Below, piece by piece: positions 9,686-25,621 of a stretch of DNA of 29,072 nt. The position numbers and the translations under genes are program-made. Under the pieces are notes generated by a model. That model was given only the letters and a program-made list of their open reading frames with translations. It had not been told where the DNA came from and did no database searches. The stretch comes from Thermoproteota archaeon (GTDB taxonomy: Archaea; Korarchaeota; Korarchaeia; Korarchaeales; Korarchaeaceae), in the NCBI GenBank assembly GCA_037917625.1, contig JAVCBY010000076.1, positions 1 through 29,072 on the forward strand, read 5' to 3'. Each line of letters starts with the position of its first letter. Position 1 is the first letter of the stretch.

Positions 9686-9721
9686 AAGATCTTAGGGGCG
9701 GGATAAAAATAAAAAGTATGC

Positions 9722-10546
9722 TCAACTTTTCTCCATCATTCTCTCTATCCAAGGGGCCTCCTTCTTAGTTGAGGGTCCGAATATAGCATCGAGAACCCTT
9801 GTCTGCCCTAGGAACATCAGAAGAGCTGCTATTACAAATATTATGTTCAGGGGCCAATCTACCAGCATCCTCAAGAATCCATCCCTAAAAGGAAGCATCT
9901 GCCTCGTTAAGGCCAAAGGAAGAATAGAAAGCACGTAATCTACTCCAAGTAGGAGAAGACCCATGATGAAGCTAGTTATCGCGAAGGAAAGAGCCCTCAT
10001 GCTCTTGGTCCTCATGTAAATGTAGAGGAACAAGATAACCGAGATCAAACCGAAGAGCTGAGTTAAGCCAATTAATAGGGCGATCATGCCCGATAATACC
10101 TCATTTATCTCGAGGTATGTGAATAACGTGATCCCGTAGAGCCTGTAGATCAGGTAAACTATATAAAAGCTGAAGGAAACTCCTACAGCTGGTAAAATGT
10201 AGAGGATTTTGAGCTCCAGTAAGTAGAAGCTCATCGTGGCTACGAATGCGAAGGAGGTGAGTAATGTTATGAAAGCGTAGAACCAAGAGTTCGCATCGAG
10301 TATGAGCCTCGGTGGTAAAATCGTGAAAGGAAGTCCTATTTTTTCGTAGTATAAGAGGAGGAAGTACTCCGTTACAGCCCAGAGTGCGAATAATAGGAGC
10401 CAAGCTATGGTAGGTCCAGCTCCCCTGAGCCATGAAGTGCCGGAGCTCCTAAGCCTGAGGAGAGTGATGAGGTGATAAATTGAAGTAGCTGCCATCAAGA
10501 GGAGAGAAGTCGTATGAGCGAGAACATAAGGATCGAGTCCCATCAC
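9722..10546 (-). CDS. Seven-transmembrane protein, putative receptor/sensor
   Basis: Seven hydrophobic segments by eye (aa ~7-30, 44-67, 87-110, 114-139, 150-177, 185-213, 228-247) and a short C-tail; 18 bp downstream of the uDENN-like gene. Confidence 0.7.
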   Translation of the reverse strand: MMGLDPYVLAHTTSLLLMAATSIYHLITLLRLRSSGTSWLRGAGPTIAWLLLFALWAVTEYFLLLYYEKIGLPFTILPPRLILDANSWFYAFITLLTSFAFVATMSFYLLELKILYILPAVGVSFSFYIVYLIYRLYGITLFTYLEINEVLSGMIALLIGLTQLFGLISVILFLYIYMRTKSMRALSFAITSFIMGLLLLGVDYVLSILPLALTRQMLPFRDGFLRMLVDWPLNIIFVIAALLMFLGQTRVLDAIFGPSTKKEAPWIERMMEKS

Positions 10547-10564
10547 CTGAATGATACCACCCCC

Positions 10565-11020
10565 TTAGAAGAAACCCCTACCTCTCTCAACGGCCTTCTC
10601 GAAGGCCCCCTTATCCTTCACCTCAGCCTCACCTTCCTTAACCCTATAGGCCGAGAGGAACTTAAAAATATCCGGTAAAAGATCTCTCAATCTCTCTATG
10701 GTCATATCGCTCGGTGGTATGCTCTCCGCTACTCTCAGCATACCGGATTCTATTCTACTGACTTCCCTCTCGTCATCAGTTACAGCTACGAGAGATGCTA
10801 TCCCCTGCCTCGGCTTCTCCCCAGTCAGCCTAACTGTGCAACCCACGAAGTTCAGATTCATCTGCTTGAACTTCACGACCTCGCCCCCGGATGCCGACAT
10901 CGGGAAAGCCTTCACCACCAGCTTCCTCATCTCCTCGCTCAGCTCCCCCGGTGGATAGAAGCCTATTACCGTGAAGCCCTCCTTATCGAGTATCGAGAGG
11001 AGTAACTTCACTACAGCCAT
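10565..11020 (-). CDS. uDENN/longin-like domain protein
   Basis: Pattern LLLSILDKEGFTVIGFYPxxxLSEE..LVVKAFPMSASG...G....R...SLVAVT recalls the uDENN longin of DENND6/Avl9-type proteins; GGAGGG RBS; ends RGFF. Confidence 0.55.
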   Translation of the reverse strand: MAVVKLLLSILDKEGFTVIGFYPPGELSEEMRKLVVKAFPMSASGGEVVKFKQMNLNFVGCTVRLTGEKPRQGIASLVAVTDDEREVSRIESGMLRVAESIPPSDMTIERLRDLLPDIFKFLSAYRVKEGEAEVKDKGAFEKAVERGRGFF

Positions 11021-11033
11021 ATAATCCCTCCCA

Positions 11034-11936
11034 TCAAGTCCCTAAGCTCTCAACATACCTCTCTATGACTTCCATGAGGGCCTCCCTAGCTCTCTCCTTA
11101 TCCTTCACTCTAGCTATGTTATTGAGGACATCAACTAAGAGCGCTTTCACCTTACTCTCAGAAGAGTAGCGAGGGACTAAAGCAGCGCCTATCAAGCCCT
11201 CTCTGATCGCTATTATCAACCTCTTGTCCCTCATCTCTATCGTCTGCGGTATGTCCTTGAGAGATTCCGTCGTGTAATTCCTAACTAGTGAGATGAAGGC
11301 GCTTAGAGTCAAGCTCGTCGTCGAGCTCGTTGAAATTATGGGGGTCCCCTTCTCATCTAAGACGATCAGATCCTCTATCCTGAGCGGATGCGAAACTTCC
11401 TTACCGGTCAGCCTCTCGTAAATCCATGCGAAAGCTTCGAATAAACCGAAGCCCGTTAAAGCGCTGGCCCAGACTATCTGCCAAGTCATCCCCTCCAACT
11501 TCGTCAATTCCAAAGCCTCTATCACTTCCATTACCGTAGCAGCGTTCTCGAGATCCGCCTTGTTCGCGATTATGAGGAGAGGCTTACTCTTCCTTATGAC
11601 GGAGACTATCCTCCAGAGCTCCTCCTTGGCCTCAGGAAACCTCTCCCTATCAGCTGAGTCCAGGACGAAAATGACAGCATCAGCTTTCTCAGCGTACTCC
11701 TCCCACATTCCCCTGAGGGCTTTCTGGCCTCCCAGATCCCATACGTTGAACTCAAGTTCCTTGACCTTGAACTTCTCGAAATTAGCTCCAACCGTCGGTG
11801 CTGTGACTCCTGGCTCCCCTGTGAGTAGGTAATTCAGCATAGTCGTTTTCCCAGCGCCATCTAAGCCCAAAATAACTAGAGTGGTTGGCCTCTTAAAGAG
11901 CCCGAATATACCTGAAACGAGCCTCTGGAACGACAC
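11034..11936 (-). CDS. Arf-family small GTPase fused to a C-terminal longin/roadblock-like domain
   Basis: N-terminal amphipathic helix FQRLVSGIFGLF; G1 GLDGAGKTT, G2 PTVG, Arf signature WDLGGQxxxRxxW, G4 NKAD, G5 ASA. The last ~115 aa begin IEDLIVLDEKGTPII with an apparent beta-beta-alpha-beta-beta-beta-alpha-alpha pattern. Confidence 0.88.
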   Translation of the reverse strand: MSFQRLVSGIFGLFKRPTTLVILGLDGAGKTTMLNYLLTGEPGVTAPTVGANFEKFKVKELEFNVWDLGGQKALRGMWEEYAEKADAVIFVLDSADRERFPEAKEELWRIVSVIRKSKPLLIIANKADLENAATVMEVIEALELTKLEGMTWQIVWASALTGFGLFEAFAWIYERLTGKEVSHPLRIEDLIVLDEKGTPIISTSSTTSLTLSAFISLVRNYTTESLKDIPQTIEMRDKRLIIAIREGLIGAALVPRYSSESKVKALLVDVLNNIARVKDKERAREALMEVIERYVESLGT

Positions 11937-11956
11937 ATGAATACAACTTAACCCTC

Positions 11957-11967
11957 AAAATATAAAT
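11957..11967 (-). promoter_or_regulatory. TATA-box candidate for the leaderless Arf-like gene
   Basis: Minus strand ATTTATATTTT, 21-31 nt upstream of ATG 11936. Confidence 0.45.
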
Positions 11968-11983
11968 CTTCCCTCCTCGCCGA

Positions 11984-12349
11984 TCAATGGAGGAACTCAC
12001 TCAATCTATGCAAGATCTCAACTATCACCTCCGAAAGCTCCGCGTAAGACCCTTTAACGTTCAACATCAGTATTACATCCCTGATCATCCTTCTAATTAA
12101 TACGAAACTTTTTTCCCCGAGGAGGAGGATGCTCGGCTCTTCCTTAAGGTTTAGGTGGGCCGAGATACTCCTCGAGATCTCCGCCATGGCTGAGAATGAT
12201 GCGACAAGGAAATCCTCACTTGGGGATTGTTTGGAATCAGAATATAGGATTATCCCATCTGATGTGAATACCTTCATCGATATTAGGGAGTCTCCGAGTG
12301 AATTCTTTACATCTTCTATGAGGGACTCGAACTCTCCCGACGGTTCCAT
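11984..12349 (-). CDS. Roadblock/LC7 (MglB-like) domain protein
   Basis: 121 aa with N-helix, VFTSDGIILYS hairpin, helix LVASFSAMAEISRSISAHL, three strands and a C-helix: roadblock layout. Confidence 0.8.
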   Translation of the reverse strand: MEPSGEFESLIEDVKNSLGDSLISMKVFTSDGIILYSDSKQSPSEDFLVASFSAMAEISRSISAHLNLKEEPSILLLGEKSFVLIRRMIRDVILMLNVKGSYAELSEVIVEILHRLSEFLH

Positions 12350-12575: not shown

Positions 12576-13109
12576 ATGAGCGAAATATCTTTCGTAGAGA
12601 GGGTGAACTTCTCCTGGGATGAAAGAGGAAAAGTTATTAGCTTAGGTGGCTTAAGAGCTAATATTTTTAACATTGGGTGCGGGGAAAAGTGCGTAACTCT
12701 TATAGAATTTGAGATGATAGTGCCGTCGAGGGGTCGCATCGAGTTCTGCGGCTCCGATATTCAAAATCTAGGCATTCAAACAGGAAAGACGAGAATTTTG
12801 GTTATACATAAACCATGCGAGGTTAAATTTGGAAGCACTGTTTATAAAATTCCAGAGACGATATTGGAGCTTCCGGGGATGCTTAAGGTTAGAGATGTAG
12901 CTTACAGTTTCCAGGAGCTAGGGAGGGGGGCCAGGATAAGGACTCTCTATAATAAAGAACCTAGAGTATATCTTCTGATAACTCCCACTCAAGCCATACT
13001 CCGCTCGAAGGATGGGAAAAGACTACTCATACCTCCAGAACCTTTGCTAATCGCAACACCCGGAGGTAGCGAGTTAGAAATAGCCGGAGTAACTCTGAAG
13101 CTCCCCTGA
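12576..13109 (+). CDS. Hypothetical protein, predicted beta-rich
   Basis: 177-aa ORF with GGAGG RBS; no recognised motif; visibly more AT-rich than neighbouring genes. Confidence 0.6.
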   Translation: MSEISFVERVNFSWDERGKVISLGGLRANIFNIGCGEKCVTLIEFEMIVPSRGRIEFCGSDIQNLGIQTGKTRILVIHKPCEVKFGSTVYKIPETILELPGMLKVRDVAYSFQELGRGARIRTLYNKEPRVYLLITPTQAILRSKDGKRLLIPPEPLLIATPGGSELEIAGVTLKLP

Positions 13110-13234: not shown

Positions 13235-13533
13235 CTCATAAGAGTGCTCCCCAGAAAAACTAGGAGTTGCTCCAGATGTGGAATTAATGCCCGAAAGGAG
13301 CATCATATGAATGTAAGAAATGTGGGTTGAGGATGGATAGGCAGCTCAATGCTGCCATAAACTCATACCTTCAGATGGAGGGTCTTCCTCCAGGAAGGCT
13401 CCTCGAAGAGTTGATGAAGCTTGGAGCGGGTTCACCCTGAAAGGAGGCTTATGAGGGCTCCAATGAACTCGGGAGGAGCTAGCTGATGAATCCCAGATAT
13501 GTGAGTCTCAAAGACCACATAGCTCAGAACCCC
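13235..13533 (+). pseudogene. tnpB: IS200/IS605-family tnpB C-terminal remnant (Zn ribbon + RuvC-III) with probable right end
   Basis: From 13259: TRSCSRCG; after a frameshift, from 13306: YECKKCGLRMDRQLNAAINSYLQMEG. This is CxxC...CxxC followed by the DRxxNAAxN motif of TnpB. Further frameshifts and stops follow; the 5' part is missing. Confidence 0.8.
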
Positions 13534-14276
13534 TTACTTAACCCGCTCATAACTTCATCAAATAGCTTCCTCTTCAGATCCTCTAAATACCTGATTGAAG
13601 CTCCCGATAGCCCTGGAAACTTTTCGATGAGTAACTTCACCCTATCTAAAGTATCCAATGCAGATCTAATCCTCTCCCTATCTTCCTCCTTCAAATCCGT
13701 GAAGAATTCCCTCAAGGCGACTCTTATATTACCTATCTCCTTGACCACTCTCTCAGGAGATCCTTCCTGAGGTATATGTTTAACTAGCAACTCTATAGTT
13801 GATGCTAGAAGTTCTGGAGGCAGCAACTCGACCTTCCCTACCATACTCTTGAGCTGTCCTGAGAGGAATCCCGCGGAGAGGCAGTCCTCACAGTACTTCA
13901 CTATCTCTATTAAGGTATTTATGTACATCTCCAACTCGCTTAAAGATCTCACTTTGATCTCCTTGAGCCTCTTCATTATCTCATTGACTATAGGCTGGTA
14001 TCTGTTCTTCAGAATGGGGGAGACTACGGAAGGATCTATCGCTTGGCTGTAAAGCACTTCCTCCTTAGAAAGCTTATCTATGAGTGCTGATATATCCTTC
14101 CTGATTGAGTTAATCTCTTCTAGGATTTCCCCGTCTAAGAACCGTAGGGATGCCTTTAGCAGCCTCTCCGTGAATTTATACTCATTTACAATATCTTCTA
14201 TTACTTCATACATTGAGATCTCAAATAGAGAGGCTTCAAATCTCTCAAACTCACCTTCGAAGAATTCCTCTAGCAT
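13524..14276 (-). CDS. Hypothetical alpha-helical/coiled-coil protein
   Basis: E/L/K-rich helical ORF; start moved to ATG 14276 (MLEEFF), ~27 nt from the shared TATA box. Confidence 0.75.
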   Translation of the reverse strand: MLEEFFEGEFERFEASLFEISMYEVIEDIVNEYKFTERLLKASLRFLDGEILEEINSIRKDISALIDKLSKEEVLYSQAIDPSVVSPILKNRYQPIVNEIMKRLKEIKVRSLSELEMYINTLIEIVKYCEDCLSAGFLSGQLKSMVGKVELLPPELLASTIELLVKHIPQEGSPERVVKEIGNIRVALREFFTDLKEEDRERIRSALDTLDRVKLLIEKFPGLSGASIRYLEDLKRKLFDEVMSGLSKGF

Positions 14277-14293
14277 ATAGGTGAAACGGGTCT

Positions 14294-14313
14294 GCAATTT
14301 TTATAAAATTTGC
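14294..14313. promoter_or_regulatory. Bidirectional palindromic TATA box
   Basis: GCAATTTTTATAAAATTTGC (one mismatched pair; perfect core TTTTATAAAA 14299-14308), centred ~28 nt from both ATG 14276 (-) and ATG 14332 (+). Confidence 0.65.
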
Positions 14314-14331
14314 CTGGCTCGAATGGATTGT

Positions 14332-15909
14332 ATGGAGCATGAGAACCCATGGGAGGCGCTGAGGGCCTCGCTGCTGGAAGCTGGATACAGCTTAGATAAG
14401 ATAGACAAGCTTGAGAGCTTGATGAAGAAGGATGAACTATTTCCCTTGCTTGAGAAGATACTAGAAAAGGTGAGGAAGCTGGAGGAGATCTCTTCAGGGG
14501 TTGAAAGGGAAATAGGGAGTGGGGGGGATATATCGAGCAGAGCCAGTTTACTATTCCAGTCCATGAAGGGGGTATTGATAAGTCTGATAGGGGATCCAGC
14601 TTATATGAGGCCCTTTCTCAGGGATAAGGGGAAAGTGAAGGAGGTAAGGAGGATCCTAGAGGTCACACTTGAGGAAGCTAGTTCTCTGGAGAGGGAGCTC
14701 GTCACTAGGGTGAATGCATATATACGTGAGAAAGGGCTGAGTGTAGAGGAACTGAGGAGCTATGAGGAGATACCTGCTGCTTTGAGCTTCTTGAGGATCT
14801 TAAAGAAATCCGAGGTTCATAAAGAGGTCCAGGAGCAGAAAGTCGAGCCTAAAGAGGAGCAGAGGAAATTAAAGGAGGAAGCTATAGCATCTCTAAATGA
14901 AGCATTTGAGAAATTGAGATCAATCGAAGAAGAGCTAGATCTTATGGGAGTGAGATATGAGAGGCTATCGCATTATTTAGAATTGCGAGAAAGGTTTATT
15001 GAGAGGGTTAAAGAGGCCGAGGAAGGGATTCTGCGGAAATATTTGAGGAACATCACCTCCAGGCTCGCAGAAGTTGAGAAAGATTCAAGGAAGCTTATTC
15101 AAATCTCCCAAAAGATGATAGATCTGAAGGCTAGTATTGAGGAGATGAAGGGAGATCTCTTAGAGAGGATGGAAGGGATAGCAGAGCTTGGAAAGTTCAA
15201 GGAGATAATCCCCTATATAGGATTGGATTTTCCCAGGATCCCTCTCCTCATAAGATCGAGGGTACACATAGAATCCCTGAGGAGGGAAGTTGAGAGGCTA
15301 AACAAGATAAGTTCCCTGATCAAGAGCGTTATAGATGAGCTGGAATACATGCCGAAGGATGCCAAACTCGATATAAGCAAGCTCTCATTAGATTCAACGG
15401 AGTCCTTCTTGGAGAGCCTCAACAACTGCCTCAGGGCCTCTAGGCTCTCTTACGGGATGCCCGAGACTGTCAGCTATACTGGGATAATGAGTGAAGTATT
15501 GGAACTATATCCGAAATGGAGAGAAAAAATAATATCACTTCTTAGGGAAAGAGGGGAAATATCTCTCCAAGACTTGAAGTTCATTCCCGGGAGCTGGAGG
15601 CCATGGGTCCTCAGGAACTTAGCTGATGAGGGTATCGTAGTCATCAACGAAGATAAGGTGGCCATGAGGATAATCCCCGAGGATATGAGGAAATTAGAGA
15701 TGGAGATAGAGGTAATAGAGGATATGTTAGCAGATTTAGGGGCAATGTTCCCCAATTTAGATGATATGAGCGTGAAGAAGATCAGGGAAGATTTTGAGAG
15801 GGCGAAGTCCTTGTTCATGATGGGGAGGATCTCGGAGTACAGGGAGCTAGTATCTGAGCTCAGATCGAGGGTAAGGGAGGTCAAGATGCAGCTGGGTGTG
15901 AAGGGATGA
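14332..15909 (+). CDS. Long coiled-coil protein with a winged-helix-like module near the C-terminus
   Basis: Extended heptad-rich sequence; segment WREKIISLLRERGEISLQDL...WVLRNLADEGIVVINEDKV has a wHTH pattern; no Walker A; start moved to MEHENPW; ATGA overlap with the GTPase. Confidence 0.75.
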   Translation: MEHENPWEALRASLLEAGYSLDKIDKLESLMKKDELFPLLEKILEKVRKLEEISSGVEREIGSGGDISSRASLLFQSMKGVLISLIGDPAYMRPFLRDKGKVKEVRRILEVTLEEASSLERELVTRVNAYIREKGLSVEELRSYEEIPAALSFLRILKKSEVHKEVQEQKVEPKEEQRKLKEEAIASLNEAFEKLRSIEEELDLMGVRYERLSHYLELRERFIERVKEAEEGILRKYLRNITSRLAEVEKDSRKLIQISQKMIDLKASIEEMKGDLLERMEGIAELGKFKEIIPYIGLDFPRIPLLIRSRVHIESLRREVERLNKISSLIKSVIDELEYMPKDAKLDISKLSLDSTESFLESLNNCLRASRLSYGMPETVSYTGIMSEVLELYPKWREKIISLLRERGEISLQDLKFIPGSWRPWVLRNLADEGIVVINEDKVAMRIIPEDMRKLEMEIEVIEDMLADLGAMFPNLDDMSVKKIREDFERAKSLFMMGRISEYRELVSELRSRVREVKMQLGVKG

Positions 15910-16511
15910 GGAAGATCTCCCTAGCTATAATAGGACCTCATCAAGCAGGAAAGAGCACTTTCATAAGGAAGTTAGATCCCTCAGCCGTGAGGATGGACTA
16001 TGAGAAGGGCACTCTATCCACTACAGTCGGCTTCGACTACGGAATAATCTTCTGGGACGCTACGAAGGATGAGCTTTACCCTAAGGAGAGCATAGAGGAT
16101 GTGGATCCATTCGATGAGATATGGAAGGTCACGCTTACTGGAACCCCTGGGCAGATAGCCTTCTCTTACGTCAGGAAGGCTTTAGTGAAGGGTAAGGATG
16201 GTGTCATAATGATAGTAGATAGCGCCCAACCCGTTCAACTGGTCTACGCTCTCGGCCAGTATCAGGAAGCGAAGGAAGTGCTACCTCCGGGATTCCCTTT
16301 CCTCATCCTAGCTAATAAGCAAGATCTACCTGACGCTAAGTCCCCGGATGTGATTAAGAGTCTCTTGGGGATGGATGCGGAGGTGATCCCCATCTCGGCT
16401 TTACGAGGGGATGGAGTTCAGGAGGCATTCATTCACTTCCTCAAAGTTGTAAGAGCTGACATAATGAGCAGATCCATTCAATCATATGCCGAGGCTAAGG
16501 TTAGAGCTTAA
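15906..16511 (+). CDS. MglA-like (COG2229-type) small GTPase
   Basis: G1 GPHQAGKST, G2 TTVGFDYG, G3 GTPGQ, G4 NKQD, G5 ISA. Confidence 0.85.
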   Translation: MRKISLAIIGPHQAGKSTFIRKLDPSAVRMDYEKGTLSTTVGFDYGIIFWDATKDELYPKESIEDVDPFDEIWKVTLTGTPGQIAFSYVRKALVKGKDGVIMIVDSAQPVQLVYALGQYQEAKEVLPPGFPFLILANKQDLPDAKSPDVIKSLLGMDAEVIPISALRGDGVQEAFIHFLKVVRADIMSRSIQSYAEAKVRA

Positions 16512-19996: not shown

Positions 19997-20965
19997 CTAT
20001 CTAGAAGCTGAGATCCCAAGCAGGCCTTCCAGGGTTGGGGACCTCACGCCTGATGCTATTATAGTTATCCTAGGCTCGTTAAGATCCTCAGCTATCCTGA
20101 ATCCCCAGTAGACCCTCTCGAGGAGATAATCCTCAGTCAGGAGCTTAGTAGCAGAGCCAGCTTCCTCCAGACTCGTATTGGGAGTCGCTTGCAGGTAGAC
20201 TAATGCGGAGTCAGCTTCCTTTACCTCAGCATCAAGTAATATATTCCCTAGGGCTGTCTTAGCAGCATCCGCGACCCTTCCACCGACTCCAAGCCCTACA
20301 GCACCCAGGCCTGCTTCCCTAACCACAGCCTCGAAGTCAGCGAAGCTTATGCTTACGACATGGGGCATGTAGAATAGGTTAGCGAGGTCCGAGATGACGG
20401 CAGCCAGTAATGAGTCAGCGTACTTGAACGCGTATTGAACCTGTATGTACCCGATCTTCCTGCTCAGTATATCGTTTAAGTTCACTATAGTGAGATCAGC
20501 TACTCCCATTATCCTCGAGAGGCCGTATCTAGCGTTATTTACCTTCCCCAATCCCTCCCAGGAGAAGGGGAAGGAGACTAAGGCTATCCTTATCACATCC
20601 GGGAACCTGTCCCTAACTGCGGAGAGTATGGGTGCAACCCCTCCTGAAGCAGTCCCTCCTCCTAGCCCTCCAGTCACTATGAGAACGTTCGGCCTACCTA
20701 TAGCAGCCATTATCCTATCCAGATCCGCCATTATGGCCCTCTCGCCCACATTTGGATTGCCCCCACTACCGAAACCGCCAGTCACAGTTTCCCCGACGAG
20801 AAGCTTGGTATCTGACTTTATCGCTTTTAGGTGGTTGGCCTCAGTATGTATGGCTATCGTCTTTACAGGCGCGCCTACTTCCTTAAGTCTGTTTAAAGTA
20901 TTGCAACCAGCTCCTCCTACTCCCACAACAGTCATCGTCACTCTAGCCTCAGGAGCCCCTGACAT
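19997..20965 (-). CDS. ftsZ: FtsZ/tubulin-family protein, paralog E (5th in operon)
   Basis: GVGGAGCN, AIHTE, GFGSGG, T4 GGGTASG, PFSWEG, T7 SISFAD. Confidence 0.88.
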   Translation of the reverse strand: MSGAPEARVTMTVVGVGGAGCNTLNRLKEVGAPVKTIAIHTEANHLKAIKSDTKLLVGETVTGGFGSGGNPNVGERAIMADLDRIMAAIGRPNVLIVTGGLGGGTASGGVAPILSAVRDRFPDVIRIALVSFPFSWEGLGKVNNARYGLSRIMGVADLTIVNLNDILSRKIGYIQVQYAFKYADSLLAAVISDLANLFYMPHVVSISFADFEAVVREAGLGAVGLGVGGRVADAAKTALGNILLDAEVKEADSALVYLQATPNTSLEEAGSATKLLTEDYLLERVYWGFRIAEDLNEPRITIIASGVRSPTLEGLLGISASR

Positions 20966-20968
20966 CGC

Positions 20969-21958
20969 TTAACCACCTCCCATAGAGCTTAAGAAGTCCT
21001 CCACCATCCTAGACTTGACGCCGAATGTGTAAACAGTGACCTTAGGCGTGGTCATCTCTATGCTCGGCTTGAGGCCGAAGTATACCTCAGGTATGCCTAA
21101 ATTCGTCGTTAGGACATCCTGAACGTACGTCATCCCCTCGACTGAGACAGCTGTCTCAGCTGACTCCAATATACCAACTACACCCTTAGCTCCCTTATGA
21201 TCGGCATCGCCAAAGGGATCGACTAAGGAGGACTCGAATGCCTCTCTTGCAGTCCTCCCTTCCCCGAATCCAGCGTAACCCAATCCAGATCCCTTGGCAA
21301 TTTCCTTCATTACTGCGAAGTCAACGTTCTGCATTCCAGGGAGTGGTGAGAGGTTCTGAAGGGAAGCCAGGCCCTTTACAACGTTGAAGAGCCTATCATC
21401 CATCATCTTATACGCTCTAGTCAGCGGAACATTCGTGAACTTCCTCTTCAGGACATCATTGAACGCGACCCAGGTGACGTCAGATAGGTCTATTATCTCA
21501 GATAGGCCGTACTTAGCGTTATTTATCCTCACCTCTCCCTCGCTCGCGAATGGTATAACAACGTAACTTATAGTTAGAGCATTCGGTAAGCTCTCCTTTA
21601 TAGTCTCAGCCAACGTCACTATTCCTCCTGTTCCCGCACCTCCTCCTAAGCCAGCTAAGAGTACTATGAGCTCCCTATCGCTCAGCATAGATATTAGGTT
21701 CTCTTTAACAGTCTCCATAGCTTTCCTCCCATTCTCTATAGTTCTAGCGCTCCTCCCACCGAGGAAGGATTCACCCGCGAGCACCTTATGATCGGCTTTC
21801 GTCGCATTAAGAGAGGCTGCATCAGTATTCACTGCTATTAACTTCGCATCCGTGAAGCCGGTCCTCTTGATGTTCGTTATCATATTGCAACCTGCTCCTC
21901 CTATGCCCACTACAGCCAGCTTGAGCTGGGCAGTGGGCTCTCCTCTCCTCCAACTCAT
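20969..21958 (-). CDS. ftsZ: FtsZ/tubulin-family protein, paralog D (4th)
   Basis: GIGGAGCN, AVNTD, T4 GGGAGTG, PFASEG, T7 NVDFAV. Confidence 0.88.
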   Translation of the reverse strand: MSWRRGEPTAQLKLAVVGIGGAGCNMITNIKRTGFTDAKLIAVNTDAASLNATKADHKVLAGESFLGGRSARTIENGRKAMETVKENLISMLSDRELIVLLAGLGGGAGTGGIVTLAETIKESLPNALTISYVVIPFASEGEVRINNAKYGLSEIIDLSDVTWVAFNDVLKRKFTNVPLTRAYKMMDDRLFNVVKGLASLQNLSPLPGMQNVDFAVMKEIAKGSGLGYAGFGEGRTAREAFESSLVDPFGDADHKGAKGVVGILESAETAVSVEGMTYVQDVLTTNLGIPEVYFGLKPSIEMTTPKVTVYTFGVKSRMVEDFLSSMGGG

Positions 21959-22191
21959 TTCCTCCTCACCTCCACAACACCTTTAACTAAAACAACATCA
22001 CCAACAGCTAAAATATTTGATGGGGGGAGTGTGTACTCCAAGATTTTCTCACTTCCTCCCCTAGCTATCTTCACCCTTACGAGGAGGCTAGCCTTTCCCT
22101 CTTGATCTATGACGACATCCTCCACTACTCCTACCCTCCTCCCTGAGCTATCTATCACCTCTTTCCCCACTACTTCCTCCCTCTTGATCAT
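21955..22191 (-). CDS. PRC-barrel domain protein (CdpB-like)
   Basis: VVGKEVIDSSGRRVGVVEDVVID...LPPSNILAVGDVVLV; start ATG 22191 overlaps the upstream stop (ATGA) and its own stop overlaps the next ATG. Confidence 0.85.
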   Translation of the reverse strand: MIKREEVVGKEVIDSSGRRVGVVEDVVIDQEGKASLLVRVKIARGGSEKILEYTLPPSNILAVGDVVLVKGVVEVRRK

Positions 22192-23186
22192 GATATCCCT
22201 CCTTGTAGCCACCTGTCGACGAGCTCTGATCTGACTCCAGTCGCTAAGAGCATTATCTTAGGCTCATAAAGCTTCCAGTTCGGCTTTATTCCCCAGAATA
22301 TGCTCATTATGTTGTAATCACTCGAAAGTGTCTGAGGTATCCTGTCGAGCTCCCTCATCACTAGCTGCGATTGGTTGCCCTCAACGTAAACTATAGCTCC
22401 CTTCGCGTTCCTTATATCTGCTTCGCTATAATTTGCAGCTATTGAATTTCTGAAAGCCTCCATCGCATTTCTTCCTCTACCTATCCCTATGAATCCCAAG
22501 CCGGAGTTCCTGACGAGGACTTCCATATTGCTGAAATCTATGTTGACGAGGCCTGGTTGCGGTACTATATCTTGCAGGCCAACTATAGAATCTATTATGT
22601 CGACTAAGAGCTTATCCATCTCCCTGAAAGCTTGGCTAACTGGTAAGTTGCCTGCTCTCTCCTTGAGCAGATCATTAGCATTGACTACAGTCATATCAGC
22701 AGAGTCGAGCATTCTGGAGAGGCCCCACTGGGCATTCCTTATTCTAGTTGGCCCCTCCGATGTGAAAGGTAGAGTCACTATCCCTATAACTATCTTGTCA
22801 GGGAACTTCTCCTTAATAGCTTCAGCTATTGTCGGCCCAGCTCCCGTCCCCGTGCCACCTCCCATGCCCGCAGTTATCATTATGAGCTCCTTGTCCCTCA
22901 GCGGGGTTAATATCTTGTCCATATCTTGCTCTGCTATCATCCTGCCTAGCTCCGGCGAACCCGCAGCTCCCCTTCCTTTGTGAGCGCCCTCCCCGATCAG
23001 TATCTTTATGTCAGCGCTTATCCTCTGCAGAGTAGGAGCATCCGTATTTACTGCGACAGTTGGAACCCTGACGCCATATCTCTTCACGTTGTTCACAGTA
23101 TTATTACCGCATCCCCCAACGCCGACTAACACCATCTTGAGGGCGGAGAGCTCAGAAGCCCTAGCTAACTCAGACCTAGACATCAT
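22188..23186 (-). CDS. ftsZ: FtsZ/tubulin-family protein, paralog C (3rd)
   Basis: GVGGCGNN, AVNTD, GRGAAG, canonical T4 GGGTGTG, PFTSEG, T7 NIDFSN. Confidence 0.92.
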   Translation of the reverse strand: MMSRSELARASELSALKMVLVGVGGCGNNTVNNVKRYGVRVPTVAVNTDAPTLQRISADIKILIGEGAHKGRGAAGSPELGRMIAEQDMDKILTPLRDKELIMITAGMGGGTGTGAGPTIAEAIKEKFPDKIVIGIVTLPFTSEGPTRIRNAQWGLSRMLDSADMTVVNANDLLKERAGNLPVSQAFREMDKLLVDIIDSIVGLQDIVPQPGLVNIDFSNMEVLVRNSGLGFIGIGRGRNAMEAFRNSIAANYSEADIRNAKGAIVYVEGNQSQLVMRELDRIPQTLSSDYNIMSIFWGIKPNWKLYEPKIMLLATGVRSELVDRWLQGGIS

Positions 23187-23197
23187 AGAGGCTCACC

Positions 23198-23512
23198 TCA
23201 TAGCGCACTTCCCATGGATATCATCTTAGACTCTAATATCCTCATAAATGTTCTCCTTAACTCCTCCATATCTGTTACACTTCCTCCCTTCGCCTCAACG
23301 TATTCTTTGACGGCTAATAAGGGAGGTATGTATGGGAATTTCTCCTGCCTCGCGAACCATGCTAGCGAGACCTCGCCTTTATTTTCATCTAAGTACCTGC
23401 TGATCAGCTCAGCAACTGATACCCTAGGCTCAGGTTGAACAGGAGGTTGAGCGGGTTGAACAGGAGGTTGAGATTCCTCCTCCTTCTCCTTCTTCCTACG
23501 GAACATATCCAT
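23198..23512 (-). CDS. Small hypothetical protein with a Pro/Gln linker inside the ftsZ operon
   Basis: GGAGGGGG RBS; MDMFRRKK N-terminus, QPPVQP repeat linker, small helical C-domain; gaps of 9 and 11 bp to its neighbours. Confidence 0.75.
   Translation of the reverse strand: MDMFRRKKEKEEESQPPVQPAQPPVQPEPRVSVAELISRYLDENKGEVSLAWFARQEKFPYIPPLLAVKEYVEAKGGSVTDMEELRRTFMRILESKMISMGSAL
23433..23472. repeat. Intragenic tandem duplication, 19 bp identical at 21-bp period
   Basis: GGTTGAACAGGAGGTTGAG at 23433-23451 and 23454-23472, encoding QPPVQP twice. Confidence 0.85.
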
Positions 23513-23521
23513 CCCCCCTCC

Positions 23522-24550
23522 TCATAAACCTAAATCAGCTAAAAAATCATCTACATATTGGGATCTCACTTGAGTCACGAGTAGGTTGACCCTCACGTCA
23601 GGGTACTCGAAGGTAGGCCTGACTCCCATGAACACAGTAGGGATCCTGTACCTCCTGCTCAATATATCAGTGGCTTCCCTCATCTGATCCACCCTCAGAT
23701 CAACGGATTTGCCCTCGAAATATATTATCGCTCCCTTCGCTTCAGTTAAATCAGTTTTAGCATAATCATCTTGCAGGGCGTCATCGAAGGCCTCGAATAT
23801 GTAGCGACCTCTCCCCACCCCTATGAATCCCAAGCCGGATTGATAGGATATCCTCGAGAAATTACTGAGATCTACGTTAACGTAACCGGGTCCCGTCTCA
23901 GCACTCTGCATCTTAACGAGAGCATAGATGCTCCTCTCTATCTTCCTATTAACCATTGAGAATGCATAATTTAGGTCTACAGCTCTTGCTTTCTCCATAG
24001 CTAGATCGTTAGCATTAACTACAGTCACATCAGAGACTTCTAAGGTCTCCCTCAATGAGAATTGGGCATTCCTCTTCCTCTCCTCCCCCTCCTCCCTCAT
24101 GGGTAATGTAACTACTGAGATCTTTATTGCCTCCTTATTCCTCAAGCCGATCTCCCTCATGAGCACTGGGAGGCCTCCTGAACCGGTTCCACCTCCCATC
24201 CCAGCTATACCTATGACTATATCTACGTTCTCATCCAAGGCTCTCAATACGCTCTCTATATCCTCCTCCATTGCCTCCCTTCCTATATCAGGTACTCCTT
24301 GAGCTCCTCTCCCCTTGTGCGTGTACCTGCCTATCAGGACTTTCTCATCCGCATCCGTCTTCTTTAGTACAGCGGAGTCCGTATTGACAGCTATCGTCTT
24401 TACGTTCTTCGGGAACTTCTTGTAGAATGCGCTTATTATATTATTGCCACATCCCCCAATACCTACTATATTTATCTTAGCCTCTGTAGCTTTCTCTACA
24501 CTCTCCAACCCCCTATCAACGGTCCTCCTCCTAACAGCCATCTCCATCAC
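23522..24550 (-). CDS. ftsZ: FtsZ/tubulin-family protein, paralog B (2nd)
   Basis: GIGGCGNN, AVNTD, GRGAQG, canonical T4 GGGTGSG, T7 NVDLSN. Confidence 0.92.
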   Translation of the reverse strand: MMEMAVRRRTVDRGLESVEKATEAKINIVGIGGCGNNIISAFYKKFPKNVKTIAVNTDSAVLKKTDADEKVLIGRYTHKGRGAQGVPDIGREAMEEDIESVLRALDENVDIVIGIAGMGGGTGSGGLPVLMREIGLRNKEAIKISVVTLPMREEGEERKRNAQFSLRETLEVSDVTVVNANDLAMEKARAVDLNYAFSMVNRKIERSIYALVKMQSAETGPGYVNVDLSNFSRISYQSGLGFIGVGRGRYIFEAFDDALQDDYAKTDLTEAKGAIIYFEGKSVDLRVDQMREATDILSRRYRIPTVFMGVRPTFEYPDVRVNLLVTQVRSQYVDDFLADLGL

Positions 24551-25560
24551 TCCCTTAAGAGCTCCTTAACATCACCTATCATATCCCTCACGAATGGAGA
24601 ATCGACTCCAGTAGCGTAAACGAAGGACTCCGGTGTCCTGAGCATTGGGTTCAACCTAGCCCCAAATGAAATTTTCTCAACATCGTACTTCTCCGTTATG
24701 AGCCTCGGCCCATCTATGACCTCCGAGAGGCTCGCAGTTGGAGGTATCTTGATATAGAGGAGATAGCCTGAGGCTGATGTAGGAGCAGCATCCAGCAACC
24801 TAGTATCTATAGCGCTCTCAACAGCTTTCCTAACGCTCCTATGGGAGCCTATGCCTATGAACCCTATCCCGGATCTCTCTATCATCCCCCTAAGATCTGG
24901 GAAGTCGAGCCTCTGCAACGTATCCCTGGGATCCAGCATCTCGACTATGTAATTTATGGCCATCTTCAGTATATTGTCCATCCTTGAGTAAGCGACTTGC
25001 GCAGGCATCTCACCGAATTTCTCCAAGAGGACATCGTTCATGTTCACTACGACACTATCGTTCACGACGACTATTTCTCTCAATCCAGATTGGACGTTCT
25101 TCATCTTCGTCTGCCCTTCGTACCTGAAGGGGATCGTTACAATGGATATCATAGCTGGGGCCTTATCTCCATACTGATCCCTTATCGCTCTCAGTAGATA
25201 TGGCAATCCGCCGCTCCCCATACCTCCGCCCAATCCAGCTACAGCTATGAGGAGATCGCAGATATCCAGAGTCCTTATAACTTTATCTAAATCCTCATCT
25301 ACTGCTTTCTGAGCTAAGCTTATATCTCCTCCGCTTCCCCTTCCCCTCAGCGTATTCTCCCCAACTTGAATTATCTCATGGGCCTTAACTTGTCTCAGAG
25401 CATTTAGATCAGAGTCCAAAGCGACTAATTTCGCCAATTCCATTCCAGATCTTGCTAAGCTATCGATGGCCTTTATCCCTGCTCCCCCAACACCTAAAAC
25501 AGTAATCTTAGTTGGTATTTCCTCAAATCTAGTTGGAAGACCGGCCCTACTGCTAGCCAT
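24547..25560 (-). CDS. ftsZ: FtsZ/tubulin-family protein, paralog A (1st)
   Basis: GVGGAGIK, ALDSD, GRGSGG, T4 GGGMGSG, PFRYEG, T7 RLDFPD; GGAGGT RBS 8 nt before ATG 25560 (alternative GTG 25566). Confidence 0.88.
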   Translation of the reverse strand: MASSRAGLPTRFEEIPTKITVLGVGGAGIKAIDSLARSGMELAKLVALDSDLNALRQVKAHEIIQVGENTLRGRGSGGDISLAQKAVDEDLDKVIRTLDICDLLIAVAGLGGGMGSGGLPYLLRAIRDQYGDKAPAMISIVTIPFRYEGQTKMKNVQSGLREIVVVNDSVVVNMNDVLLEKFGEMPAQVAYSRMDNILKMAINYIVEMLDPRDTLQRLDFPDLRGMIERSGIGFIGIGSHRSVRKAVESAIDTRLLDAAPTSASGYLLYIKIPPTASLSEVIDGPRLITEKYDVEKISFGARLNPMLRTPESFVYATGVDSPFVRDMIGDVKELLRE

Positions 25561-25621
25561 CCTCACTTACCTCCCATTTTATAGGACGAAAACTCTGGCC
25601 CATCACTTCACTCCCTCTCAA

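Follow-up and report, generated by a model that had tools for sequence, protein, structure and literature searches.

The literature openly acknowledges a gap regarding the native regulators and membrane partners of archaeal Arf GTPases; the identities of the native AArf regulators "remain to be established" according to Zhu et al. (PMC11914678). Can a conserved gene neighbourhood point to them? This question is raised by a locus of Candidatus Korarchaeum, the host named by the sources of close homologues (genome 1.22 Mb, 84% complete). It lies in a stretch of 29,072 nucleotides (nt) of contig JAVCBY010000076.1 (GenBank assembly GCA_037917625.1), whose whole length is referred to here as the window, and encodes an Arf-related GTPase (ArfR) next to a small longin-domain protein (p151), an integral membrane protein (TM274) and a Roadblock/LC7-domain protein (rbl121). 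The robust unit comprises three genes, those of ArfR, the longin protein and the seven-transmembrane (7TM) protein. Taken as a whole, the locus is best explained, with a probability of roughly 60%, as an Asgard-type three-gene GTPase module in which p151 would be a regulator resembling GTPase-activating proteins (GAPs), and the roadblock protein would serve mainly a neighbouring MglA-like GTPase.

In the cultured Asgard strain MK-D1, GTPase genes generally do not share operons with roadblock or longin genes (Tran et al., PMC10933270), so that partners cannot be read from MK-D1 gene order. A recent paper (Traffic 2025; PMC12290439) raises the question of whether the GAP-like longins of Asgard have ArfR or Rag proteins as their clients. 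A longin protein and a 7TM protein offer concrete, matched partner candidates, as their genes accompany ArfR at several loci, which represent two archaeal phyla and two gene orders. The korarchaeal copy suggests that the three genes have been transferred as a block beyond Asgard, or at least are maintained there as one. The small proteins of this hot-spring lineage should also suit biochemical and structural work, and one genome of the lineage (G012) is a single 1.6-Mb contig. The finding is tempered by the fact that the GTPase itself has already been published.

Gene content of the locus

Four minus-strand open reading frames (ORFs) at 9722-12349 share one orientation, with intergenic gaps of 47, 13 and 18 nt in the ORF listing. 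In order of transcription, with lengths in amino acids (aa), they and the parts of ArfR are as follows:

11984..12349, minus strand: rbl121, 121 aa; predicted divergent Roadblock/LC7-domain protein
11034..11936, minus strand: ArfR-CTD, 300 aa, GTG start; Arf-related GTPase with a putative longin-like C-terminal domain (CTD)
11889-11933, minus strand: ArfR amphipathic helix, residues 2-16, FQRLVSGIFGLFKR
11397-11888, minus strand: ArfR G domain, residues 17-180
11037-11396, minus strand: ArfR C-terminal domain, residues 181-300
10565..11020, minus strand: p151, 151 aa; predicted stand-alone longin-domain protein, NPRL2-like
9722..10546, minus strand: TM274, 274 aa, GTG start; integral membrane protein with about seven hydrophobic helices

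An earlier sequence-only reading of this region had described four co-oriented genes with exactly these gaps in an apparently non-Asgard archaeon, and had named a roadblock relative, an Arf GTPase with a longin domain and a multi-pass membrane protein among their products. These descriptions were borne out by the ORF listing, the host assignment and the searches reported below.

Conservation and recurrence of the three-gene unit

Synteny across korarchaeal and Asgard genomes, which the sequence-only reading had proposed as a check, revealed a conserved order within the genus and an ArfR-longin-7TM linkage that recurs elsewhere. The order roadblock-ArfR-p151-TM exceeds what chance would give, as it is found in nine of the 12 orthologous loci of the genus, those that span it. 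A contig end truncates two further loci, in which ArfR-p151-TM is kept, and in the remaining one (L011/L017) ArfR and p151 are separated by a 2.9-kb insertion. Across the genus loci, the lowest identities are 65% for ArfR, 42% for p151, 32% for the TM protein and 28-33% for the roadblock protein. The insertion in L017 (4645-7247 of G007:C110) contains a 281-aa ORF and a diverged second paralogue (568 aa, 27% identity), on the opposite strand, of p542, a protein also encoded in the window (see below).

The linkage was also identified at other loci. A second korarchaeal locus carries a paralogous cassette, ArfR289-p155-TM283 (L014 and L016; L015 is cut), and L013, a further korarchaeal locus, has a p151-family gene (E 7.5e-18) that immediately precedes ArfR. 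In five Asgard genomes with 23 distinct p151-like places, 14 show the series p151-like, ArfR and 7TM, four show p151-like and 7TM, and five have other arrangements. Ten more Asgard loci from six other genomes comprise five triads, three pairs, one cut locus and one locus (L114) in the korarchaeal order. In L114, an ArfR with a C-terminal domain (303 aa) is followed by a p151-like gene and then two TM genes; its ArfR aligns with residues 1-254 of the window ArfR (31% identity, E 2e-43), and its longin protein matches at E 9e-6. The Asgard triads come from Heimdall-group genomes. Of the 33 p151-like places in Asgard, 20 thus have the ArfR-p151 link, with two gene orders represented, and it occurs at three different korarchaeal locus types as well.

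The sequence-only reading had further suggested that the cassette was previously undescribed. This stands for the linkage: our literature search found no paper describing an ArfR-longin-7TM cassette or the neighbouring K. cryptofilum locus tags. It does not stand for the Arf gene, which has been published as the korarchaeal ArfR. What appears to be new is the linkage of a known GTPase to a longin and a 7TM protein, which we did not find in print. The korarchaeal case is new in its phylum, its gene order, an ArfR with a putative longin-like domain of its own and the adjacent MglA-like/roadblock module.

Two side observations concern the Asgard loci. At three places with p151-like and 7TM genes but no ArfR between them (L026, L027 and L028), a TPR protein is encoded directly upstream. 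Two cassettes of genome G042 (L025/L047 and L050/L054) look damaged: one has an ArfR frame of only 73 aa, and the other has a p151-like gene with an in-frame TGA.

The ArfR GTPase and its C-terminal domain

The 300-aa protein belongs to the Arf family (PF00025, residues 15-175, E 4.1e-49, 166.8 bits against a cut-off of 22.3) and matches Arf/Arl chains in the PDB at up to E 7e-38. Its motifs G24LDGAGKT, W66DLGGQ71, N125KAD and S158AL are invariant in 14 sequences, and WDLGGQ carries Gln71. The N-terminal helix (FQRLVSGIFGLFKR) has a hydrophobic moment of 0.71, and residues 3-11 are helical in the AF2 model, which has a mean predicted local distance difference test score (pLDDT) of 76.6. Gly2 is the N-myristoylation site in eukaryotic Arfs. 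Residue 2 is Ser in the window protein and Ala, Pro or Gly in relatives; a protein lacking Gly2 is expected for archaea.

Residues 189-295 of the AF2 model follow the longin order strand-strand-helix-strand-strand-strand-helix-helix, with pLDDT values of 62-84 in this block. This topology agrees with the longin domain that the sequence-only reading had attached to the GTPase. When the C-terminal domains of seven orthologues were compared with Pfam, three matched Robl_LC7 weakly (best E 2.6e-4) and two matched Fuz_longin_1. Fold searches with the whole ArfR model gave G-domain matches only (residues 13-180), including HodArfR1 (8oul) and GerdArfR1 (8oum), and a profile of the C-terminal domain had no match in the PDB. 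Comparisons of this domain with roadblock (hhalign probability 0.9%) and with the C-terminal extensions of Heimdall-group ArfRs of 315-340 aa (7.6%) were not significant.

Full-length ArfR matches were found in the host genome and in 14 of 20 same-genus genomes, whereas none of 20 genomes outside the genus had one, yielding only weak partial matches to other GTPases. The window ArfR is 95-97% identical to proteins of the genus. In a quick tree, the korarchaeal sequences form a clade (support 99) in a polytomy with Asgard and eukaryotic Arfs. The accessible text of Vargova et al. (bioRxiv 10.1101/2024.02.28.582541) defines ArfR and names a K. cryptofilum Arf-related protein; outside Asgard it places ArfR only in a shallow korarchaeal branch, for which one transfer from an Asgard donor is proposed there. 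Our distribution agrees with that branch, and by its sequence the 300-aa protein is most likely the korarchaeal ArfR already published. The main text of that preprint contains no instance of roadblock, neighbo-, operon, synten- or "C-terminal extension" and uses "longin" only in an introductory list, so that the ArfR neighbours and the C-terminal domain appear undescribed there.

The profile of the ArfR C-terminal domain also gave weak matches in 83 of 301 sampled Asgard genomes. At the 20 such loci examined, most matches are longin-like domains at the N terminus of proteins that are not GTPases and have about 300 or about 425 aa; some are small stand-alone proteins, and none is an ArfR fusion. 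At four of the Asgard loci (L087, L101, L103 and L106), the weak match falls on roughly the first 100 residues of proteins encoded side by side, which are about 300 and 425 aa long and lack a GTPase domain; these adjacent proteins may represent a family of paired longin-headed proteins. Separately, the Heimdall-group genomes G041-G044 (L060, L072, L073 and L079) encode Arf-family GTPases in tandem pairs, each protein having about 320 aa and a C-terminal extension of about 140 aa. The second GTPase of each pair is more diverged, the pairs have a Rag-style look, and none adjoins a p151-like or 7TM gene.

The longin protein p151 and the membrane protein TM274

No Pfam or NCBIfam family matched p151. 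Its AF2 model (pLDDT 84.7; predicted template modelling score 0.77) has the longin order of strands and helices, with strands at residues 5-12 and 15-22, a helix at 29-38, strands at 48-53, 56-65 and 73-81, and helices at 84-100 and 108-124. All top matches of this model in three fold searches were longins. Foldseek, which had been proposed as a check on the sequence-only reading, placed the SEA complex chain 8adl_S first (E 1.6e-5) together with GATOR1 chains, followed at lower ranks by the Lokiarchaeal longin 8yqg_B, VAMP7, FLCN-FNIP2, Lst4 and DENN proteins. VIA-align returned 9o5a_H (Z 12.7), 9o5d_D (12.4), 7t3b_B (11.4), the Lokiarchaeal 8yqg_B (11.0), the FLCN-complex chain 8dhb_J (10.3) and DENND1B (9.8), and an independent wide fold search returned 8fw5_B (Z 11.6), 8yqg_B (11.0) and 8adl_S (10.6).

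The model therefore presents p151 as a lone longin whose nearest matches (Z 11.4-12.7) are N-terminal longins from GATOR1/SEACIT chains. The search output names entries rather than subunits, and the GATOR1 chains of about 362-370 residues are what we take to be NPRL2. The sequence-only reading had called p151 uDENN-like. This was right as to the longin fold, which uDENN domains share, but the NPRL2-type longins are nearer: DENND1A and DENND1B match at Z 9.5-9.8, over the longin part only. The central and downstream DENN domains are missing from p151, which consists of a single longin and a low-confidence tail.

Two positions of p151 are strongly conserved. G15 is invariant, and Arg71 is invariant in 10 of 10 korarchaeal sequences and near-invariant in a wider alignment of 15 rows. 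Arg71 lies in the loop between strands 4 and 5 (residues 66-72), next to the turn between strands 1 and 2 in the AF2 model. In PMC12290439, GAP-type longins are tied to a GP motif located where the loop between strands 1 and 2 ends or strand 2 begins, and an arginine finger adjoins it.

Relatives of p151 also occur outside Korarchaeia. A profile search of 1.84 billion representatives gave 18 matches, three of which are long repetitive proteins taken as spurious, and the named non-korarchaeal relatives come from a Heimdallarchaeota metagenome-assembled genome and an "Asgard group archaeon". The korarchaeal and Asgard sets match each other with an hhalign probability of 98.5% (E 1.7e-15), and the korarchaeal-only profile found members in eight of the 301 sampled Asgard genomes at E <= 1e-5. 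Against the PDB, the p151 profile gave SNAP-25 noise only (E ~0.07).

The tail of p151 (residues 132-151; 10565-10624) has low model confidence and, in the p151 family, a conserved aromatic end, which is GFF or GLFF in Korarchaeia (GFF in the window copy) and D-x-W in the Asgard relatives. The tail may be a short docking peptide.

TM274 has seven hydrophobic segments and a short charged C-terminal tail by Kyte-Doolittle hydropathy of the protein and of its family alignment, and it matched no Pfam or NCBIfam family. A word-index search gave eight homologues, and those named are from Korarchaeum or Korarchaeota. Among the language-model look-alikes of a 90%-identical TM274 homologue are Promethearchaeota clusters at 0.92, which we regard as a lead only.

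The roadblock protein and the neighbouring MglA-like module

The following further features of the window bear on the roadblock gene and on the borders of the cassette:

15906..16511, plus strand: MglA-like small GTPase of 201 aa; belongs to the conserved module next to the cassette
14281..15909, plus strand: p542, conserved, no significant Pfam match; ahead of the MglA-like gene in transcription
13524..14297, minus strand: p257, conserved, without family match; divergent from p542
12576..13109, plus strand: p177, unknown protein; between roadblock and p257 in the window lineage
11957..11966, minus strand: TATA-like TTTATATTTT, read from the sequence; centre about 26 nt upstream of the ArfR GTG start
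9703..9715, minus strand: T-rich tract TTTTTATTTTTAT, read from the sequence; immediately after the TM274 stop codon
9685..8021, minus strand: ilvD, dihydroxy-acid dehydratase gene; next gene after TM274

A family profile of nine rbl121 orthologues matched Roadblock/LC7 chains in the PDB (9jue_D, E 2.7e-4; 7f8m_A, E 0.008). Pfam Robl_LC7 (PF03259) was detected in six of these nine orthologues, with a best E of 1.1e-6, and not in the window copy itself. On these family-level matches, we assign rbl121 as a divergent Roadblock/LC7 protein.

The 201-aa GTPase matched MglA (3t12) in the PDB at E 3e-7, and its G3 motif reads LTGTPGQ, with Thr where Ras-like GTPases have Asp. MglA has Thr in place of the G3 Asp. 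The available text of PMC4316618 describes the role of this Asp, counts a GTPase as MglB-coupled if the two genes lie within four genes of each other, and lists one Group 4 MglA for the single korarchaeal genome known at the time. In all seven extended loci, the MglA-like and p542 genes lie on one strand, and p257, roadblock, ArfR, p151 and TM on the other. Orthologues of p542 are located beside the MglA-like gene in L017-L023 and L029, and in most relatives p257 immediately precedes the roadblock gene. The p257 gene overlaps or abuts the roadblock gene; in L017, a 262-aa p257 orthologue ends 4 nt inside it. ArfR is preceded by 47-80 nt across loci, which in the window contain the TATA-like box TTTATATTTT.

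No roadblock-like ORF was found in L013-L016 (the paralogous korarchaeal cassette and L013) or at any of the 33 Asgard p151-like places examined. In a related korarchaeal genus without ArfR (L031, 7041-8754 of G021:C55), a Robl_LC7 protein (E 7.3e-10), a V4R protein and an MglA-like GTPase are encoded in a row. The roadblock protein therefore probably serves mainly the MglA-like GTPase nearby and not ArfR, because it is absent from the other cassettes, adjoins the MglA-like gene in the genus without ArfR, is followed by a TATA-like box before ArfR and overlaps p257. A second role with ArfR, as cross-talk, is possible.

As read from the DNA alone, the TATA-like box is a possible separate promoter of ArfR-p151-TM, and the T-rich tract TTTTTATTTTTAT possibly marks the operon end, the TATA region of ilvD or both. 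As listed, the ORFs of p257 (minus strand) and p542 (plus strand) overlap by 17 nt at their 5' ends (14281-14297); probably either one start is mis-set or the two share a very tight divergent promoter. The position of p177 differs in L021 and L022, where it follows the MglA-like gene. At 3.5 kb from the MglA-like gene, the window also contains five tandem FtsZ/tubulin-family paralogues of 322, 329, 332, 342 and 339 aa (19997-25566, minus strand; PF00091, E 1e-28 to 5e-41), interspersed with one 104-aa ORF, an unusual cluster of cytoskeletal GTPases.

Proposed working of the module

We infer the following scheme of binding, catalysis and signalling direction for the Korarchaeum module. Most likely, this lineage would have acquired the three genes as one block, alongside the published transfer of ArfR. 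ArfR would be an intact Arf switch that cycles on and off the membrane by its N-terminal amphipathic helix, and the GTP-bound form would insert this helix into the membrane near TM274. There, p151 would dock on ArfR, plausibly pairing with the C-terminal longin of ArfR as in NPRL2-NPRL3, FLCN-FNIP and C9orf72-SMCR8, and would then set the nucleotide state of ArfR, most likely as a GAP using the conserved Arg71 and less likely as a guanine nucleotide exchange factor (GEF). We favour the GAP role because of the nearest folds and the conserved Arg71. TM274 may anchor or gate the reaction between p151 and ArfR. The roadblock protein would belong mainly to a resident module, in which p257 and roadblock are divergent from p542 and the MglA-like GTPase, and would act there like MglB.

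Several observations weigh against this explanation. NPRL2-type longins score only modestly above generic ones (Z ~11-12.7 vs 8-9.8), and the GP motif is half present, with G15 followed by F or L and never by P in the korarchaeal and wider alignments. The longin-like nature of the ArfR C-terminal domain is drawn from the order of its secondary structure, at pLDDT 62-84, and from weak Pfam matches. The quick tree does not settle how the korarchaeal ArfR relates to the ArfRs of the Asgard cassettes. For the membrane protein, the TM274-family profile matched 0 of the 301 sampled Asgard genomes, a blank result that is not proof of absence, and the korarchaeal TM protein showed hhalign probabilities of 5% with the Asgard cassette TM family and of 0.1% and 4.8% with the two TM proteins of L114. 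Since TM274 has no detectable relation to the Asgard TM family, transfer of the whole block from Asgard is at most plausible where the TM gene is concerned. All main-lineage loci that span the region have the roadblock gene as the immediate upstream neighbour of ArfR. Finally, ilvD and a downstream 157-aa gene (p157), which are unrelated, are equally syntenic within the genus; synteny within the genus is therefore no proof in itself of a functional link, for which recurrence at independent loci is stronger evidence.

Alternative explanations

The sequence-only reading had joined all four genes into one self-contained unit, with a hypothetical signal flow from membrane receptor through regulator to Arf switch. 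In such a unit, the roadblock protein would act on ArfR as a Ragulator/MglB-like scaffold or GAP and pair with the ArfR C-terminal domain as the roadblocks of Rag and Ragulator do. Its position speaks for this, as the roadblock gene is co-oriented with and directly upstream of ArfR in nine of nine spanning main-lineage loci and in L017, and the ArfR C-terminal domain matches Robl_LC7 in three of seven orthologues. The recurring ArfR-longin-7TM part of the claim stands, but the roadblock is absent from the paralogous korarchaeal cassette, from L013 and from all 33 Asgard places. Moreover, 47-80 nt and a TATA-like box part it from ArfR while it overlaps or abuts p257, and its classical client, an MglA-like GTPase, is conserved three to four genes away and adjoins it in the genus without ArfR. 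With genus synteny kept equally for the unrelated ilvD, we consider a four-gene unit unlikely. The same synteny, of ilvD and of p157, is what would be expected if the genes were neighbours by descent only, with ArfR having landed beside p151 and TM274 without a functional tie. Recurrence of ArfR-p151 at three korarchaeal locus types and 20 of the 33 Asgard places in two gene orders makes this highly improbable, and the gaps of 13 and 18 nt fit co-transcription.

Within the preferred three-gene module, p151 might instead be a GEF or a nucleotide-independent adaptor for ArfR, like most longin platforms (DENN, TRAPP, Mon1-Ccz1 and Ragulator). The proline of the GP motif is missing, the longins of DENND1A/B, Mon1-Ccz1 and the AP sigma/mu subunits also match at Z 8-9.8, and most longin regulators are GEFs according to the accessible parts of PMC3747258 and PMC12290439. 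The best fold matches are to longins of GAP complexes (GATOR1, SEACIT and the FLCN complex), however, and a near-invariant arginine lies in the loop by the strand 1-strand 2 turn; neither point is decisive, and we hold the GEF or adaptor role to be possible but somewhat doubtful. A farther-reaching version of the module would make TM274 a true sensor that steers the longin action on ArfR. The resulting pathway from receptor through longin regulator to Arf would be a forerunner of the LYCHOS/GPR155-GATOR1-Rag system, whose receptor resembles G protein-coupled receptors, compact enough to move between archaeal phyla as one cassette and wired in Korarchaeum next to an MglA/roadblock polarity-type module. 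We regard this as quite unlikely in its full form.

Comparison with known systems

The neighbouring module resembles MglA-MglB and the archaeal clusters of roadblock, V4R and GTPase genes in the TGTPGQ motif, the MglA structure match and a roadblock gene within four genes of the GTPase (the measure given in the available text of PMC4316618). It differs from MglA-MglB in that p257 and p542 lie between the roadblock and GTPase genes and the Arf cassette is directly downstream.

Asgard GTPases fused to longin or roadblock domains have been reported (Tran et al., PMC10933270). In the window ArfR, as in Rag/Gtr GTPases, the G domain is followed by a further domain, here of about 120 aa and of putative longin/roadblock type. 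Unlike these GTPases, it has an Arf-type sequence (166.8 bits for Arf against 28.2 bits for Gtr1_RagA) and an N-terminal amphipathic helix, the model of its C-terminal domain has the longin rather than the roadblock order of strands and helices, and the cassette has no paired second GTPase. With the Asgard and korarchaeal ArfRs and AArf, as far as these are presented in the accessible texts of 10.1101/2024.02.28.582541 and Zhu et al. (PMC11914678), the window protein shares the Arf motifs, WDLGGQ, the amphipathic helix and the fold matches to 8oul and 8oum.

The Asgard longin-ArfR-7TM cassettes have the same three components, and L114 shares with the window both the gene order and the ArfR C-terminal domain. 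In contrast to these cassettes, the window cassette belongs to a Korarchaeum (Thermoproteota) host, has the order ArfR-longin-7TM, encodes a 7TM protein without detectable sequence relation to theirs and adjoins an MglA-like/roadblock module.

In eukaryotes, longin GAP complexes comprise GATOR1 (NPRL2-NPRL3) acting on RagA/B, FLCN-FNIP acting on RagC/D and C9orf72-SMCR8 acting on Arf1, as given in the available text of PMC12290439. Different from the proteins of these complexes, p151 has only 151 aa without DENN-like or C-terminal parts, and it carries G-F/L in place of GP. It resembles them in its predicted longin fold, in a conserved loop arginine that may be the counterpart of theirs and in its proposed Arf/Rag-like client, and the putative second longin-like domain, carried by ArfR itself, would allow a platform of two longins.

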